Assembly (NCBI GenBank): GCA_050043105.1 | Contig: JBHJIV010000157.1 | Location: 1,470-25,469 of the forward strand | DNA from: Leptolyngbyaceae cyanobacterium | GTDB lineage: Bacteria; Cyanobacteriota; Cyanobacteriia; Phormidesmidales; Phormidesmidaceae | DNA: 24,000 nucleotides | Direction: 5' to 3' | Shown here: positions 989 through 22,569 of the stretch, piece after piece | Numbering within the stretch: position 1 is the stretch's first letter | Layout: every line of letters starts with the position of its first letter | Notes under the pieces: generated by a model | The model's input: the letters and a program-made list of their open reading frames with translations, nothing else | What the model was told of the DNA's origin: nothing | Databases searched by the model: none | Made by a program: the position numbers and the translations under genes

Positions 989-2011
989 CTATGCCGCAGA
1001 GACGTTGTGCAGCGCGTCTAAAATTGACAACAGTTCTACAACAACACCGTTGGTCCAGCCAAACCCTATTTCGTTAGTGCTGTAGCCAAATTGAATCTCG
1101 TCTGAGACATTGCCTGAACAACGCTCTAGATCATATTTTTCTAACAGATAGCCGCAGCGCTCAAAGTCACTGAGGGCAAGGGTCACAAAATTCTCGGCAA
1201 TCCGTTTGGCTTCGGCCTGATAGCCGTAGCGCAGCAGCCTGCGGACTGCAATTAGCTGCAACGGTGCCCAGCCAAAGGGGGCGTCCCACTGATTGCCTGA
1301 AGTATAGTTACTGGTGCGAATACCGCCTGGGGCTTCAAACTTAGAGAGATTGTCGACCACTTGCTGAGCCTGTTCAACGGTGGCGATGTCGGCCCAGAGC
1401 AGATAAAAGGTAGTAGCAAATTCATAGTAGCGCCGCCGCTCGTCGCGAAAGTTGTAGTCAAGATAGAGCCCGCTATGGCTGTCCCAGAGATACTCATTGA
1501 TCAGCTTGGCCCGCTCGTCTGCTTTATCTTGCCAGCGCTGGGCTAAGTCGGGGTACTTAAGCGTTTCATTTATATAGACCAGGTCGCACTTCATAATATA
1601 CAGCAACACGTTTAGACACACAGGAGCATAGTGGATAATGTCAACACTAAATGGTCCAAAGCGGTTGGTTGGGTCTAGACCCGATTCACGCCTGGAGCGA
1701 TCGCATTTGTAAAATAGATCCGTTAACCGGTCGCCCATGCTGTCGTAATAAAGCGTTAGGTCATAGTCAATAACAGACTGGGTTCGATAGTAGTCTTTGA
1801 TCCGCTCAAAGTGGGTACGACCGCCCTCGTCACGCTCAGAAAAGATAACTTCGGGGGCGGGGCCATCACCAATGGCATAGTAGTGAGACAACCCTATGTT
1901 GGCATCTAGGTGGGGTGGGACATTCCAGTAATAGTAGTAGCTTTCGAGCTGGGGAATGGTGGAGCGTAGCCAGTCGATATCTTGACTGTGGGAAAACCAA
2001 CCCAACACCAT
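989..2011 (-). CDS. Trehalase-family (GH37) glycoside hydrolase, C-terminal ~2/3 only; probable truncated gene remnant
   Basis: 340-aa ORF. GNQWDAPFGWAPLQ and GFGWTNGV match the trehalase signature-2 and C-terminal motifs as remembered from E. coli TreA. The ORF starts where TreA is roughly 200 aa in, so the PGGRF..YYWD signature-1 region is absent. There is an in-frame TAG four codons upstream of the ATG (2021-2023), and only 117 nt separate it from the rfpC stop. Confidence 0.7.
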   Translation of the reverse strand: MVLGWFSHSQDIDWLRSTIPQLESYYYYWNVPPHLDANIGLSHYYAIGDGPAPEVIFSERDEGGRTHFERIKDYYRTQSVIDYDLTLYYDSMGDRLTDLFYKCDRSRRESGLDPTNRFGPFSVDIIHYAPVCLNVLLYIMKCDLVYINETLKYPDLAQRWQDKADERAKLINEYLWDSHSGLYLDYNFRDERRRYYEFATTFYLLWADIATVEQAQQVVDNLSKFEAPGGIRTSNYTSGNQWDAPFGWAPLQLIAVRRLLRYGYQAEAKRIAENFVTLALSDFERCGYLLEKYDLERCSGNVSDEIQFGYSTNEIGFGWTNGVVVELLSILDALHNVSAA

Positions 2012-13908: not shown

Positions 13909-13935
13909 GCGAACTAGCCCAATTGGCTAGTTCGC
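13909..13935 (-). promoter_or_regulatory. Perfect 11-bp stem / 5-nt loop hairpin spanning the chlF stop codon in the chlF-psaA2 spacer
   Basis: gcgaactagcc (13909-13919), loop caatt, ggctagttcgc (13925-13935). The chlF TAG (complement of 13927-13929) lies inside the stem. No U-tract follows on the minus-strand transcript, so it does not look like a classical intrinsic terminator. Confidence 0.35.
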
Positions 13936-15102
13936 CACTCCGGTTGATGTGTCTGCAGCGTTAATAAACTCAGCGTCTTCTCCAAGAAAGATAGGAAATG
14001 TTGTTTTACGGGTATCTTTGACCGCATAAATACCCAAGTTTGCCTGTACGACAACATCAGACCATGTCGGCACAACTGTCTTTTGAAAAGACTGTCCTAG
14101 CGGCAACCGATCAAACCCCAAAGCTGCCATATCTACGCCTATAGCCGCTGACCAAATGCCTGCTACCGGTAAAGCGGCAAGTAAAAAATGGACAGCGCGA
14201 GATGTCTCAAACGTTGCCCCTCGCCATAGTAGTTTCTGTTGATAGGCCTGAGTATGCTCAAAGCTATAGGTGCGATTGCTCTTTTTTGGCCGTTCTGCTA
14301 AAACAGAATGCTGCTCCGAGTGACGCACCAGCGCAGACGTGACCAAAGCCCCATGCAATGAGCAGAGTAACGCCCCACCAAACACGCCGATTACCCCCAG
14401 CTGGTGAAAGGGGTTAGCAAGAATATTATGGTCAGCCTGAAATTCCAGCATAAAGGTAAATGTTCCGGAAATTCCGAGAGGCATACCCGAAGCAAAACCG
14501 CCTTGACCGATAGGGTAGATCAACAACACTGAGACCGCTGCCGCAACTGGGGCTGTAAACGCTAGCGAAATCCAGGGACGCATGCCCAAACGATAGCTCA
14601 GTTCCCATTCTCGATCTTGATAGCTAATGCTACCAATGATAACGTGCAGCACAATTAGCTGATATGGACCCCCGTTAACCAGCCATTCGTCTAAAGAGGC
14701 CGCCTCCCAAATTGGATAAAAATGAAGTCCAATTGCTGCTGATGTCGGCACAACGGCGGCCGTAATCACATTATTACCGTCCAATAGAGCACCGGAAATA
14801 ACTCTCCCTGTACCCTCTATATCAACAGCAGGGGCGGCTATAAACGCCAGTATGAAGACAATGGCGGCCGTAGACAGAGTGGGAAACATAATCATCCCAA
14901 ACCAGCCCACATAGATTCGATTTTCGGTACTGGTCACCCACCGGCAGAAACGCTCCCAGGGAGAAATTGGCGCAGCCGCATCCACGCAAATAGCACGTCT
15001 CGATGGAGGGTCTACATTGGAGTGACCACTACCAGATAGGGTAGGCGACTCCAACTGTTTTAGAGATGATTTAGTAGTAATCACTTTGCTAAGCTGTGTC
15101 AT
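13927..15102 (-). CDS. chlF: Chlorophyll f synthase ChlF (PsbA4, super-rogue D1)
   Basis: 391-aa D1 homolog: [15 protein letters not shown]...[13 protein letters not shown]...[13 protein letters not shown]. It has YQDREWE where D1 has YMGREWE (QD motif; codons at complement of 14614-14619). FASGMPLG replaces FSDGMPLG (D170 lost). There is no HE...H...D.A C-terminal Mn-ligand set, and an N-terminal extension of about 35 aa is present. Confidence 0.9.
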
Positions 15103-15154
15103 CTAAAGCCTTGCAGTAAAGTTGTTATTTGAAGCAGTTTGACGTGACCGGGTT

Positions 15155-15186
15155 TTCTATTTGCTTCCACTGGAAGTCAGATAGAA
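15155..15186. promoter_or_regulatory. Interrupted palindrome 53-84 nt upstream of the chlF start codon (candidate operator or 5'-UTR hairpin)
   Basis: ttctat-ttg-cttcca-c-tggaag-tcag-atagaa. Two 6-bp arms on each side pair perfectly, and the centre has a 3-versus-4-nt mismatch. It lies in the 644-bp chlF/psbV divergent region. Confidence 0.25.
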
Positions 15187-15514
15187 AAATCTCTTGAAGG
15201 CACGAGCCGATTTCGACTCTCACTTCTCGACTAATTAACAAGCGCCTTTCAATCACCGTTCACGAAACCAAAGATAGTTGAATTAACAGTAGGGAAACTA
15301 TAGAAACAAAAGATGGAAAACTAATGAAGATAAAAATCCCCTATAGAAAAAGTTACAGTTTAGATACAGATACGTTATTGGGTACTGTCAAGCGCCTATG
15401 TTCTCTTTAAAGGATTTAGCCTGACTAACGTATAAGAAAAGGGTATGATATCTTCAGGCTGTAGCATACAAAGCCTGAGTCAATCGATTCGATATTGATT
15501 CAAGTAAGTTGCTG

Positions 15515-15562
15515 TGCGAGATTTTTTGAAAAAGTTATCTATGCCAGCATAGAAATCTCGCA
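15515..15562. promoter_or_regulatory. 10-bp perfect inverted repeat with a nested 6-bp palindrome in the chlF/psbV divergent region
   Basis: tgcgagattt (15515-15524) and aaatctcgca (15553-15562), enclosing ctatgc-ca-gcatag. It lies about 185-230 nt upstream of the psbV ATG. Confidence 0.25.
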
Positions 15563-15746
15563 TTAATGTTCTGCATTTGAGGGTCTAGAACTATTAAAAC
15601 CCTGATGAGCCAAGGAGAATTTTCTCCTGACTTAAAAAATCTAAACTAAGATTTTTTGACCGACGCTGTACAGGGTACTTCAAGGATAACGCACTGAGTT
15701 AGTGGGTGTTGAGGCGTTAGCAAAACAATTTTAGGAGAAAATCATA

Positions 15747-16271
15747 ATGCATTTCCATCTCAAAAAAATCTCAATCAAGCCTATCATCTCTACGATTTTT
15801 ACACTGTTGCTCTCGTCCATTTTATGGATAACTGTTGGGGATGACGTGGCCGGAGCGGTTGAAATTAATCAGGCTACTCGTACCGTACCGCTAAATGATG
15901 CAGGCGATCAAGTCACAGTAAGTGTTAAGCAGTTTACTACGGGGCAGCGAAAGTTTAATAGCAACTGTGCCCAGTGCCACTTAGATGGAGGTACCAAAAC
16001 CAATCCTGATGTCGATCTGGGTGCCGAACGGTTGTTACTGGCAACGCCCTCACGCAATAATATTAAGAGCATGATCGAGTATCTAGAAAATCCCACGACC
16101 TATGATGGATTAACGTCCCTAGAAGAGCTACATCCCTCACTCGCTCGTTCTGATCTCTTTCCTAAAATGCGAGAGCTAACGGAGGAGGATTTAATTGCGA
16201 TTTCAAGCTACATACTAATCCAGCCAAAAATTGTCGGTGAGCAGTGGGCTGGTGGTAAACCAAACCGGTAG
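15747..16271 (+). CDS. psbV: Cytochrome c550 (PsbV) paralog, PSII lumenal extrinsic subunit
   Basis: 174 aa with a signal peptide, then TVPLNDAGDQVTVSVKQFTTGQRKFNSNCAQCHLDGGTKTNP...ATPSRNNI..MIEYLENPTTYDG...ELHPSLARSDLFPKMRELTEEDL. It is collinear with canonical PsbV, including the CxxCH heme motif and the distal His in HPSL. AGGAGA lies 9 nt upstream of the ATG. Confidence 0.85.
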   Translation: MHFHLKKISIKPIISTIFTLLLSSILWITVGDDVAGAVEINQATRTVPLNDAGDQVTVSVKQFTTGQRKFNSNCAQCHLDGGTKTNPDVDLGAERLLLATPSRNNIKSMIEYLENPTTYDGLTSLEELHPSLARSDLFPKMRELTEEDLIAISSYILIQPKIVGEQWAGGKPNR

Positions 16272-16322
16272 CTGTAGACAAGCAAAAAGCCAGATTAGAC
16301 TGGCTTTTTGCTTGTCTACAGC
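16271..16322. terminator. Bidirectional intrinsic terminator shared by convergent psbV (+) and psbO-psbF-nblA (-)
   Basis: Perfect 23-bp inverted repeat: gctgtagacaagcaaaaagccag (16271-16293), loop attaga (16294-16299), ctggctttttgcttgtctacagc (16300-16322). The core GCCAG/CTGGC stem is flanked by an A5 tract on one side and a T5 tract on the other, so it reads as a terminator on both strands. It begins at the last base of the psbV stop codon and ends 9 nt from the nblA stop. Confidence 0.8.
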
Positions 16323-16331
16323 TTGAGAGAT

Positions 16332-16499
16332 TTAAGGATTTCTGATTAAATGCTTAACCAAATTCTCTCTCATCATCATTAGCTGCATGATGTCTATGAT
16401 ATATTCTTGAGCTTGAATAACTGTCAGCCCCTTGACCTGCTCTCTTAAAATTTGTATCTCAAACTGTTGCTCTAAGGTCAAATCTCCTGGCATTCCCAT
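16332..16499 (-). CDS. nblA: NblA-family phycobilisome degradation (proteolysis adaptor) protein
   Basis: 55 aa from the ATG (complement of 16497-16499), with GGAGGAG 8 nt upstream: MGMPGDLTLEQQFEIQILREQVKGLTVIQAQEYIIDIMQLMMMRENLVKHLIRNP. It aligns along its whole length with remembered NblA/Ycf18 sequences (LS.EQQF.........QV..........F.......M..EN......R). The 93-aa ORF-track version extends into psbF in another frame and is rejected. Confidence 0.8.
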   Translation of the reverse strand: MGMPGDLTLEQQFEIQILREQVKGLTVIQAQEYIIDIMQLMMMRENLVKHLIRNP

Positions 16500-16531
16500 A
16501 ATAATTGCTCCTCCATCGATTAAATGTGGCC

Positions 16532-16666
16532 TTAGCGCTGAACAAACTGCATCGCTGCGATCGCACCTAAGAAAAATACTGTCGGAATCCCCAGAGCATG
16601 TACTGCCAGCCATCTGATAGTAAAAATAGGATACCGAATCTCCTGGTCACGGTTGATATTAGCCAT
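16532..16666 (-). CDS. psbF: Cytochrome b559 beta subunit (PsbF) paralog; small ORF not in the ORF track
   Basis: Manual base-by-base reverse-complement translation gives [44 protein letters not shown] followed by a stop (44 aa). It is near-identical in pattern to canonical PsbF (..[31 protein letters not shown]), including the heme-ligand His. AAGAGG lies about 9 nt upstream. It starts 22 nt after the psbO stop. Confidence 0.85.
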
Positions 16667-16688
16667 CGGAAAAACCTCTTATTTACAA

Positions 16689-17513
16689 TTAAGCAACTGC
16701 TTGGTCGATCCGACCATAGAACTGACCTTGAATTCTGACATCCATCGGCTCTTTAGCACCAAAATCAGTATCAGAAGGTTGATTGCTTTCAAATAACCCA
16801 GCAATTTCTCCTGTTTTTCGATTGACTCGAGTGATTTGTAGAGAAATCTCCCCTTCACCCACCTCAAAGGACTTGCTGTTTTGACGGGAAAATTTCTCCC
16901 GATCTGCCTGAATTGGGAATCCTACTGCTGCATCATATCCTGATGATAATCCCCGTCCTTTTGGATCAATAAAATTGGATGTGCGATAGGGAGGTACCTG
17001 GAATGTTCCCACTAGTCGGGTTGTTGGGCTTAGCTTATTTGAGACATCTTGATTTTTAGCCACAAGTCCTTTAATCGTAAATAGCAGAGCAATCCGCTCA
17101 CCATTGGGAGGCTGTACCGTTACGGGCTGAAAGTCAAATCCCCCCTGCTCAGCAAAAGTGATGTTGCCATCAGAATCGACTTGTAAAGAACCACTTACTT
17201 GATCAAGACTAAAACTCTCGCGGGTGAGGGGTTTTGAAACTACGAAATCATTCTCCTGACTCTTGACCATAGAAGAGCCTTTTACTAGAAATGTCTCAGG
17301 TTGTAAACACAACCCATTAAGTTGATACGACTGATTAGCATCTATAGCAATTGCATCCCGACTGCTGCGTGACAGTTGAGGACAGTTATTGGCTAGACCA
17401 CTACCCTTGATGTCATCGTAGCTTAGTGAGCTAGCCTGTGGGCCGCCACTGCAGGCGGTAATTAGTCCAAAGCACAAGACTAATAAACCAGTTATTAACG
17501 TACGATATTTCAT
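16689..17513 (-). CDS. psbO: Manganese-stabilising protein PsbO paralog, PSII lumenal extrinsic subunit
   Basis: 274 aa from the ATG (complement of 17511-17513; an alternative ATG is at 17528): MKYRTLITGLLVLCFGLITACSGG...LSYDDIKGSGLANNCPQL...GLCLQPETFLVK...FQPVTVQPPNGERIALLFTIKGLVA...VPPYRTSNFIDPKGRG.SSGYD...TGEIAGLFESNQPSDTDFGAKEP.DVRIQGQFYGRI. It is collinear with cyanobacterial PsbO, including both disulfide cysteines. Confidence 0.9.
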   Translation of the reverse strand: MKYRTLITGLLVLCFGLITACSGGPQASSLSYDDIKGSGLANNCPQLSRSSRDAIAIDANQSYQLNGLCLQPETFLVKGSSMVKSQENDFVVSKPLTRESFSLDQVSGSLQVDSDGNITFAEQGGFDFQPVTVQPPNGERIALLFTIKGLVAKNQDVSNKLSPTTRLVGTFQVPPYRTSNFIDPKGRGLSSGYDAAVGFPIQADREKFSRQNSKSFEVGEGEISLQITRVNRKTGEIAGLFESNQPSDTDFGAKEPMDVRIQGQFYGRIDQAVA

Positions 17514-17659
17514 TTTTTGTTCTCTCATTAATGGCGTAGGCGCGTAACCAGACGAAAGCGCACTCGCAAATTTGTGAAAAGATGATAGTCCACACGATAA
17601 ATTCCCCCACAAAAAAATGGAGAACATATGAAGAGAGAGTTTATGTATCGCTGATTATT

Positions 17660-17695
17660 AACTTATGTAAAGCGATTTTCATATTTTCATAAGTT
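17660..17695. promoter_or_regulatory. 8-bp inverted repeat enclosing a perfect tandem 8-mer, in the psbO/apc divergent region
   Basis: aacttatg (17660-17667) and cataagtt (17688-17695). Inside is attttcat-attttcat (17675-17682 and 17683-17690). The background is AT-rich, so a chance occurrence is plausible. Confidence 0.2.
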
Positions 17696-17879
17696 CTCCA
17701 TTTTTTTTTCCTATTCTTCTTGCAAGCTTTAGTAAAACAAGTCTTCCTTACTGCTCAGGTGAGCATCTAGCTTTTTTAGCCAGATGTTTTCTAAAGAGTA
17801 AGACTCTAAATCTTGTTGGCCTGATGCAAGCGATAAATGCCTTCAATCAGCTATGTAGTCTAACGGAGAATGAATCACG

Positions 17880-18356
17880 ATGAGCCTGGTTACAGAACTC
17901 ATTCTGGGTGCAGATAGTGAAGCTCGCTATTTAGCTCCAAAGGAACTGCGGATTTTTCAAGACTTTGCCAAAACTGGAGAACAGCGTATTCGGATCGCCA
18001 GAGCGCTGGCAGAAAATGAACAGCGTATTGTGCAAAACGGTAGTCAGAAATTTTGGGAACGTTGTCCAAATACGCCAAGCAATAGCGGAAACGATCGTAA
18101 AACAGCCTCTTGTCAACGAGATCAAGGCTGGTATGTTCGTTTAATTGCTTATTCTATTTTGGCCGGGAGCGAACGCCCGTTAGAAGAGATTGGTACAGTC
18201 GGTATCAAAGCAATGTACAACAATCTAGAAATTCCGATTCGCAATATTGCAGAATGCATGCGCTGTCTTAAAGAAGAGGCAATGGCTCTTCTAAGTGAAG
18301 AAGATGCTCAAGAAGTAGCTCCATACTTTGATTTGATCATTCATTCACTTTTGTAA
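17880..18356 (+). CDS. Allophycocyanin alpha-type subunit, far-red paralog (ApcA2/ApcD2/ApcD5 class; exact paralog not assignable by eye)
   Basis: 158 aa: MSLVTELILGADSEARYLAPKELRIFQDF..TGEQRIRIA...KTASCQRDQGWYVRLIAYSILAG...VAPYFDLII. This is the AP alpha globin fold with the chromophore Cys at residue 78. It has the divergent PNTPSNSGN segment where canonical ApcA has ...SPGGNAYG.... Confidence 0.9.
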   Translation: MSLVTELILGADSEARYLAPKELRIFQDFAKTGEQRIRIARALAENEQRIVQNGSQKFWERCPNTPSNSGNDRKTASCQRDQGWYVRLIAYSILAGSERPLEEIGTVGIKAMYNNLEIPIRNIAECMRCLKEEAMALLSEEDAQEVAPYFDLIIHSLL

Positions 18357-22035: not shown

Positions 22036-22569
22036 ATGAGTATCGTTAAACAGGTCATTCTCAATGCCGATGAAGAACTTCGCTATCCTACTCCTGGTGA
22101 GCTACGGATGATTCGCACTTTCTACAAAACAGGACCAGAGCGCATTCGGCTAGCTTAAACGTAAGAAGAAAAAGCTCAGGCGATCGTAGATAGAGGCACT
22201 CGAAAATTTTGGCAGCTTTGTCCGAGGACACCGAGCAACAGTGGTGATCGCCGCAAAACCGAAGCAGCTAAGCGAGATGTCGGTTGGTATATCCGTTTAA
22301 TTAGCTACTGTTTGTTAGCTGGCAACAATCGTCCATTAAGAGAGATTGGCTTAGTTGGAATGAAAGAGCTATATACCAATATTGGTATTCCGCTCACTAA
22401 CATTTTGCAGTATATCCGGTGTCTCAAAGCGGAGGCTATTGCTTTGCTAGATGAGACCGATGCAGCCGCTGTCATTCCCTACTTTGATGAAATCATTCAG
22501 GAATTGGCTCTGCCAGGGCCACCCTATTTTATGAACGATGGTATCGGTGAGAGTGAATCAGTCGTTTAA
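22036..22569 (+). pseudogene. Allophycocyanin alpha-type far-red paralog (Cys-less, ApcD3-like) interrupted by two in-frame TAA codons
   Basis: A single frame from ATG 22036 reads MSIVKQVILNADEELRYPTPGELRMIRTFYKTGPERIRLA*T*EEKAQAIVDRGTRKFWQLCPRTPSNSGDRRKTEAAKRDVGWYIRLISYCLLAGNN...VIPYFDEIIQELALPGPPYFMNDGIGESESVV. The stops are at 22156-22158 and 22162-22164. There is no frameshift, and the reading is collinear with the two intact alpha paralogs. The ORF track splits it into 21973-22158 and 22312-22569. Confidence 0.75.

Follow-up and report, generated by a model that had tools for sequence, protein, structure and literature searches.

The psbO, psbF, nblA, and psbV genes of a Leptolyngbyaceae far-red cluster: a further example of a known optional gene set of one cyanobacterial lineage

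Are photosystem II (PSII) and antenna genes that adjoin a cluster for far-red light photoacclimation (FaRLiP) part of that response, or do they only happen to sit there? The question is raised by a 24,000-nt stretch from a Leptolyngbyaceae cyanobacterium (GCA_050043105.1, contig JBHJIV010000157.1, positions 1,470 to 25,469; hereafter the window), in which two transcription units converge: psbV (15747-16271, plus strand) runs toward psbO-psbF-nblA (17513-16332, minus strand). This four-gene module is flanked by chlF-psaA2B2L2I2F2J2-rfpBAC on one side and by the far-red apc operon on the other. The module is the known optional far-red PsbO/PsbF/NblA/PsbV set of one cyanobacterial lineage and is not new. 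The initial annotation placed the four genes outside the universal FaRLiP core set, which is correct, and named an earlier description of the arrangement in FaRLiP clusters as a refutation. The arrangement does already appear in Chen et al. (2019), Gisriel et al. (2021), and a preprint by Antonaru et al. (2024); the observation is therefore sound without being novel. It is likely that the module is a lineage-specific optional part of FaRLiP in Nodosilineales/Phormidesmis-type cyanobacteria, i.e., group VI of Antonaru et al. The present analysis adds only a little: how often nblA occurs and in which two length classes, an inverted psbV that carries no FaRLiP motif, and a hairpin that is conserved in position.

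The genes on either side of the module identify the cluster. The minus strand carries chlF, psaA2, psaB2, psaL2, psaI2, psaF2, psaJ2, rfpB, rfpA, and rfpC, and the plus-strand side carries three apc genes, apcE2, and psbD3, so that the hallmarks of a FaRLiP cluster (chlF, the far-red psa set, rfpA/B/C, and a short apcE2 followed by psbD3) are all present. Hidden Markov models (HMMs) recognize a knotless-phytochrome kinase, an RR-wHTH-Hpt-RR regulator, a CheY-type protein, and PsaA, PsaB, PsaL, and PsaF among the FaRLiP components, and on the apc side PsbD, three Apc genes, and an ApcE of 795 aa that contains two linker domains. The gene order of the window is identical in 17 other loci in which psbV is inverted.

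The identities of the four module genes rest on curated HMMs from Pfam and NCBIfam, which, together with the list of open reading frames (ORFs), confirmed the gene assignments, coordinates, and convergent two-unit layout of the initial annotation (Table 1); the matches of all four go far beyond chance. PsbO matches PF01716 with 328.5 bits over profile positions 2-242 of 242, and it has the N-terminal hydrophobic leader and the two cysteines (in NNCPQL and NGLCLQP) that mark a PsbO. The listed psbO ORF reaches 17627, beyond the called start at 17513. PsbF keeps the histidine heme ligand of its family (RWLAVHAL), and its psbE partner is absent from the cluster. The gene for PsbV is monocistronic and inverted relative to the psbO operon, with an AGGAG Shine-Dalgarno sequence 6 nt before its ATG. 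The protein scores 199.9 bits on TIGR03045 (cutoff 177.75), and its heme ligands are intact (CAQCH and a distal histidine in ELHPS), as expected of a PsbV; CxxCH and the distal histidine are conserved in all 31 of 31 cluster-linked PsbV proteins. A Thermosynechococcus-type PsbV2 (TIGR03046/PDB 4LJI) was considered and rejected at 73.1 bits against a cutoff of 148.35. Because it stands above the TIGR03045 cutoff and below that of TIGR03046, the window PsbV is an ordinary c-550, and the "psbV2" of the FaRLiP papers differs from the Thermosynechococcus PsbV2 type.

For nblA, the listed ORF encodes 93 aa (16332-16613, minus strand) and overlaps psbF; the start was therefore set at Met39, which gives 55 aa, the same length as the gene of a 96%-related metagenome-assembled genome (MAG). 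The protein clears the PF04485 gathering score of 25 bits and aligns over its full length with NblA proteins of known structure (2q8v/2qdo, E=1e-7; 1ojh, E=3e-5). LxLEQxF is retained near its N-terminus, as are Leu51 and Lys/Arg53 near its C-terminus, residues that we take to be required for phycobilisome binding. A homologue search with the 55-aa protein returned one match, of 91% identity. The intergenic gaps of psbO-psbF-nblA, 22 and 32 nt, are consistent with an operon. Comparison of the window with its closest MAG gave ratios of nonsynonymous to synonymous substitution (dN/dS) of 0.10 for psbO, 0 for psbF, 0.06 for nblA, and 0.12 for psbV; all four genes are real, intact, and under purifying selection.

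The synteny comparison proposed in the initial annotation shows how regularly the module occupies this place. A protein search with PsbO found matches of 97 and 96% identity in the marine MAG Cyanobacteria bacterium P01_H01_bin.21, the closest MAG, and after these many more with identities of 59-75%. In about 35 genomes and MAGs, each PsbO that shares 59% identity or more with that of the window stands divergent from a far-red apc operon, while relatives at 50-55% identity occur in unrelated contexts without FaRLiP. A scan of species-representative genomes yielded 34 loci, annotated by tblastn, and these show two layouts: (i) that of the window, in 18 loci, with apc leftward, psbO, psbF, and with or without nblA rightward, psbV leftward, and chlF and psaA2 rightward; and (ii) that of 13 loci, including Synechococcus PCC 7335, in which psbV is co-directional and the last gene of the operon. 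Wherever the available sequence suffices, psbV is present; 7 loci lack psbF, and nblA is intact in 22 of 33 informative related clusters. Most of the loci without nblA have a psbF-psbV gap that leaves no room for it.

Two loci from this comparison deserve separate mention. L031 (PWXP01000261.1) is a 2.9-kb contig in a MAG labeled Planctomycetaceae that carries apcB2, an apc gene, psbO, and psbF; it matches Nodosilinea sp. P-1105 both in percent identity to the window proteins and, exactly, in the apc-facing motif, and the contig is almost certainly a binning contaminant. L046 (an Elainellaceae MAG, GCA_051117555.1) belongs to a different FaRLiP lineage. Its psbO is 59% identical to that of the window and back-to-back with the apc operon, psbF, nblA, and psbV are absent, and a 112-aa hypothetical gene is followed by rfpC/A/B, which fits a rare lineage-V variant of the Antonaru preprint.

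One of the closest published systems is that of Halomicronema hongdechloris, whose FaRLiP cluster has an additional psbO and psbV; both products become more abundant under far-red light, as do the other cluster proteins (Chen et al., 2019; PMC6416890). The order of apcD3 (XM38_010870), psbO (010880), and chlF (010900) is as in the window, and uncultured Halomicronema MAGs (L024) have the same layout with psbV inverted. The two differ in content: Chen et al. (2019; PMC6416890) make no mention of psbF or nblA, and the Halomicronema MAG loci have psbF and lack nblA. In Synechococcus sp. PCC 7335, a psbO1-psbF2-nblA-psbV operon has been described that includes "an nblA paralog" (Gisriel et al., 2021; PMC8689208). 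The structure of far-red PSII, 8EQM, contains PsbO1, PsbV1, and PsbF2 (Gisriel et al., 2022; PMC9843442), and mass spectrometry of PCC 7335 far-red PSII found all three to be more abundant than their paralogs (PMC9843442). PCC 7335 shares with the window the same four genes, the first three in the same order, and an operon that is back-to-back with the far-red apc-psbD3C2B2H2 operon in the same position. Moreover, chains of 8EQM and 7SA3 are the top PDB matches for the PsbO, PsbV, and PsbF of the window: 8eqm_O for PsbO (358 bits; the runner-up has 296 bits), 8eqm_V for PsbV (E=4e-52, versus E=4e-14 for 4lji_A), and 7sa3_F/8eqm_F, the PsbF2 of far-red PSII, for PsbF. On the other hand, psbV is co-directional in PCC 7335 and ends a single operon, the genes that come next are hfq and dapF (non-FaRLiP) rather than chlF-psa, NblA has 73 aa with a C-terminal tail, and protein identity to the window is 62% for PsbO, 75% for PsbF, 35% for NblA, and 56% for PsbV.

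In a third account, psbO2, psbV2, and psbF2 are treated as optional FaRLiP genes of the earliest lineage, VI, and perhaps as ancestral (Antonaru et al., 2024; 10.1101/2024.05.15.594131). The same preprint describes a T-rich intergenic motif in chlF, long, and short versions, with the short one upstream of psbO. The window agrees with lineage VI in its chlF, psa, rfp order, in apc followed by psb, and in the same optional genes; this analysis independently recovered all three motif types, 61 nt in length at chlF, long at apc, and short at psbO. What the preprint (10.1101/2024.05.15.594131) does not contain is nblA, an inverted psbV without a motif, or a hairpin in the convergent gap. The survey of Gan et al. 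(2015) and a 2022 paper by Gisriel on PSII evolution leave psbO, psbV, and psbF unmentioned, and nblA was in none of the FaRLiP gene inventories found in the literature, its only appearance being the passing mention for PCC 7335.

Alignment of the chlF-upstream regions of 13 related loci gave a 61-nt element that consists of CTGTAACTTTTTCTA, a spacer of about 10 nt, and TCTTCATTAGTTYTYCATTTTTCTT. A 25-nt position weight matrix (PWM) was built from its 3' half and compared with 200 shuffles of the window, whose maximum score was 20.3. Exactly three sites in the 24-kb window exceed this maximum, and they face chlF, apc, and psbO (Table 1). The chlF-facing site belonged to the training set of the PWM; the psbO-facing site did not. 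The chlF-facing motif lies in the 644-nt divergent intergenic region between chlF and psbV, about 390 nt from the psbV start, and the apc- and psbO-facing motifs share a divergent intergenic region of 366 nt. Among the related loci, the apc-facing motif is found in all 34 and an equivalent of the psbO-facing motif in 27 of 33, mostly 77-160 nt from psbO. The psbO-facing motif is presumed to be an RfpB-dependent promoter element, and with a score above the shuffle maximum the psbO-psbF-nblA unit carries the motif expected of the RfpB regulon. A scan for consensus promoters and terminators was uninformative, with 6 promoter-like sites where 6.4 were expected; one of its terminator calls was rejected because it is the psbO-facing FaRLiP motif.

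Table 1. Coordinates and supporting evidence for the features of the window that are discussed in the text.
Feature	Position	Strand	Evidence or context
chlF	13927-15102	-	psbA-like, 444 bits vs psbA cutoff 596
chlF-facing long FaRLiP motif, 61 nt (CTGTAACTTTTTCTA, spacer, TCTTCATTAGTTTTCCATCTTTT...)	15298-15358	-	PWM 35.5
psbV paralog (cytochrome c-550, 174 aa with signal peptide)	15747-16271	+	Pfam PF14495 (Cytochrom_C550), E=3.3e-50; TIGR03045
Perfect 24-bp inverted repeat, 6-nt loop	16270-16323		In the 60-nt psbV/nblA stop-to-stop gap
nblA (55 aa; gene 3 of the putative operon)	16332-16499	-	Pfam PF04485, 61.3 bits, E=1.2e-16
psbF paralog (cytochrome b559 beta subunit, 44 aa)	16532-16666	-	TIGR01333, 87.3 bits vs cutoff 61.15
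psbO (manganese-stabilising protein, 274 aa; gene 1 of the putative operon)	16689-17513	-	Pfam PF01716 (MSP), E=2.6e-98
psbO-facing motif core (TCTTCATATGTTCTCCATTTTTTTG)	17610-17634	-	PWM 25.7; 96 nt upstream of psbO ATG
apc-facing motif	17684-17708	+	PWM 29.6; 171 nt upstream of the first apc gene (17880)

A model of how the module would work can be assembled from these elements. Far-red light would act through the RfpA/RfpC/RfpB cascade encoded in the window on the promoters that bear the conserved T-rich motif, namely those of chlF, apc, and psbO. psbO-psbF-nblA would then be transcribed as a single unit alongside the rest of the cluster. The inverted psbV, which no motif faces, would be a second unit, and both units would end at a shared hairpin. 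PsbO, PsbV, and PsbF would be exported or inserted and would join PsbA3, B2, C2, D3, and H2 in far-red PSII, as the orthologous isoforms do in the far-red PSII structure from Synechococcus 7335. NblA, in turn, would deliver phycobiliproteins of the visible-light antenna to the Clp protease during synthesis of the far-red allophycocyanin cores. In this one old FaRLiP lineage, remodelling is thus not confined to the chlorophyll-binding core: it also takes in cytochrome b559, the lumenal shield of the water-oxidising site, and probably the demolition of the antenna. This wider picture is already in the literature, and the window is one more example of it. It is a cleaner case than PCC 7335, since a single contig holds the whole cluster with all four module genes, and the motif that faces psbO is intact.

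Several observations weigh against the proposal that all four genes belong to the far-red response. In PCC 7335, the two psbF genes are stated not to be modulated by FaRLiP (PMC8689208), and the operon is treated as lying outside the FaRLiP cluster (PMC8689208, PMC9843442). The psbO-facing motif is degenerate throughout the PCC 7335 clade (scores of 3-14, with 9.0 in PCC 7335 itself against 25.7 in the window), which would be compatible with the non-modulation by far-red light reported there. Its complete loss in that clade was considered and rejected, as the 16-nt core (TTCATAAGTTCTTCAG) stays and only the T-tract is gone. No psbV-facing motif was found in the window (best score 0.5) or in 13 relatives with inverted psbV (3.7 or less), all of these scores being under the 95th percentile of the shuffles. 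NblA falls below the equivalog cutoff of NCBIfam NF045916 (31.4 versus 100 bits) and is a divergent member of its family. Lastly, a canonical psbO/psbV/psbF set was not shown for the genome of the window or for the 96%-related MAG; when the canonical psbO of P01_H01_bin.21 was sought by cluster membership among ten NCBI matches, none could be assigned.

The gene for PsbV is the weakest link of the proposed regulation. The initial annotation considered the case of a module co-regulated by RfpB; this is supported for the psbO operon by its own FaRLiP motif and finds no sequence support for psbV, which has no detectable motif in any of the 14 inverted-psbV loci (the window included). Regulation may therefore be split, with psbO-psbF-nblA in the RfpB regulon and the inverted psbV having escaped to an unrelated promoter that is constitutive or answers to some other signal. 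The inversion and the strong hairpin do part psbV from the operon, and because psbV is the last gene of the psbO operon in the other layout, the inversion took away its inherited promoter. Such an escape is possible but on balance doubtful, given that the cluster PsbV protein of H. hongdechloris rises in far-red light with the same gene order, that the long chlF motif in the same intergenic region could work both ways, and that psbV is cluster-linked in every locus. Under the preferred reading, in which psbV is far-red-induced with the rest of the module, it would be driven either by a bidirectional chlF motif or by another promoter. psbV has thus lost its promoter context, yet its H. hongdechloris counterpart is still induced at the protein level, and one may ask whether the chlF motif is bidirectional.

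The role of the cluster NblA allows more than one reading. Canonical NblA is an adaptor for the Clp-dependent degradation of phycobilisomes. The window protein resembles its solved representatives (PDB 1OJH, 2Q8V, 2QDO, 3CS5) in its length of about 55 aa, in aligning with them end to end, and in the conserved LxLEQxF motif and C-terminal helix; it differs in that its gene sits in a light-quality cluster, whereas the canonical gene is under nutrient-stress control, and in that it stays below the NCBIfam equivalog cutoff. One tentative proposal is that the cluster NblA is a dedicated far-red member of the family, co-transcribed with psbO and psbF from an RfpB-dependent promoter, which targets visible-light phycobilisomes and spares the far-red allophycocyanin cores. 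If this is true, antenna demolition is a programmed part of the cluster in two-thirds of the lineage. Conversely, the cluster NblA may not clear the old antenna at all, and may instead serve in the turnover or size control of the far-red allophycocyanin core, or be a dispensable passenger. Its absence from 11 of the 33 informative clusters and its low equivalog score would fit such a view, and the existence of two length classes, one of about 55 aa and one of about 73 aa that ends in a conserved tail, suggests functional drift. We regard this as rather unlikely, because the protein aligns over its full length with the solved NblAs, including LxLEQxF, Leu51, and Lys/Arg53, its dN/dS is low, and in other FaRLiP strains nblA transcripts go up and phycobiliprotein levels go down in far-red light. 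In Chlorogloeopsis fritschii, for instance, nblA transcripts rise two- to threefold in far-red light, from genes outside the cluster (PMC6424891). For specialists, the recurrence of nblA in two-thirds of the related clusters, together with its absence from the published FaRLiP gene lists, deserves attention, as does the question of psbV control raised above.

The C-terminal tail that separates the two NblA classes is about 18 aa long, with a consensus of roughly PQxQYSQSIxFQxK, and occurs in clusters with co-directional psbV (L003, L018, L022, L028, L030, L035, L037, and L040-L043, with nblA downstream of psbO). The 55-aa NblA of the window and of the other inverted-psbV clusters is without it.

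Whether the module genes are extra paralogs or the main housekeeping copies can be judged from the relatives. A search with one canonical PsbO found a second psbO in eight genomes that carry the cluster copy: Oscillatoria sp. CS-180, Leptolyngbya cf. ectocarpi LEGE 11479, LEGE 07310, cf. Phormidesmis LEGE 11477, Phormidesmis RL_2_1, MAG J06627_28, MAG P01_A01_bin.114, and H. hongdechloris. In a neighbour-joining tree, cluster-linked and canonical PsbO form clean, separate clades, with the PsbO of the window in the FaRLiP-linked clade; within the same genome, the two copies are 47.6-53.8% identical. A lipobox-like LTAC signal was rejected as a mark of far-red PsbO, as the canonical clade has LTAC too, and only three columns are strictly diagnostic of the clades, too few for a structural argument. 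The comparison supports extra paralogs, at least in the relatives, and by extension probably in the organism of the window; the paralog status claimed in the initial annotation thus stands on these eight genomes. That they are instead housekeeping genes, expressed whatever the light and merely adjoining FaRLiP, and supply the organism with its main or sole psbO, psbV, and psbF, is very improbable: the naming of the PCC 7335 copies as PsbO1 and PsbV1 outside its cluster, the unmodulated psbF pair there, the second copy not found here, and a PsbV score above the ordinary equivalog cutoff would fit this, but the separate canonical psbO of eight relatives, the distinct PsbO clade, the far-red apc operon that invariably adjoins these copies across about 35 genomes, the FaRLiP motif that faces psbO, and the far-red increase of the H. 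hongdechloris cluster copies all argue otherwise.

At the convergent ends of the two units, the psbV/nblA hairpin has a minimum free energy of -43.2 kcal/mol (z=-10.2, 200 shuffles). A strong hairpin fills the corresponding gap in every relative with inverted psbV, and its sequence is not conserved. Several of these gap hairpins resemble classic bidirectional terminators with an A-run, a stem, and a T-run. The hairpin is probably a shared bidirectional terminator or a stabiliser of the 3' ends. The terminator scan missed it in the window because there is no canonical T-tail outside the stem. Sub-threshold matches of the hairpin to microRNA precursors of Rfam (scan of 15000-18000) were dismissed as artefacts of the long, perfect stem.

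Two observations concern the remainder of the cluster. An ORF of the trehalase family (989-2011, minus strand, 340 aa) lies directly downstream of rfpC and bounds the cluster there; it covers only the C-terminal two-thirds of the Pfam model. Between apcE2 and psbD3, an apcD3-like phycobiliprotein gene (22036-22569, plus strand) has two in-frame TAA stops, at 22156-22158 and 22162-22164 (codons 41 and 43). In the 96%-related MAG, whose gene is intact (177 aa), the two codons read AAA (Lys) and CTA (Leu); the remainder of the window gene has 95% protein identity to it, with zero indels. The gene is either a very recent pseudogene or carries a sequence error.

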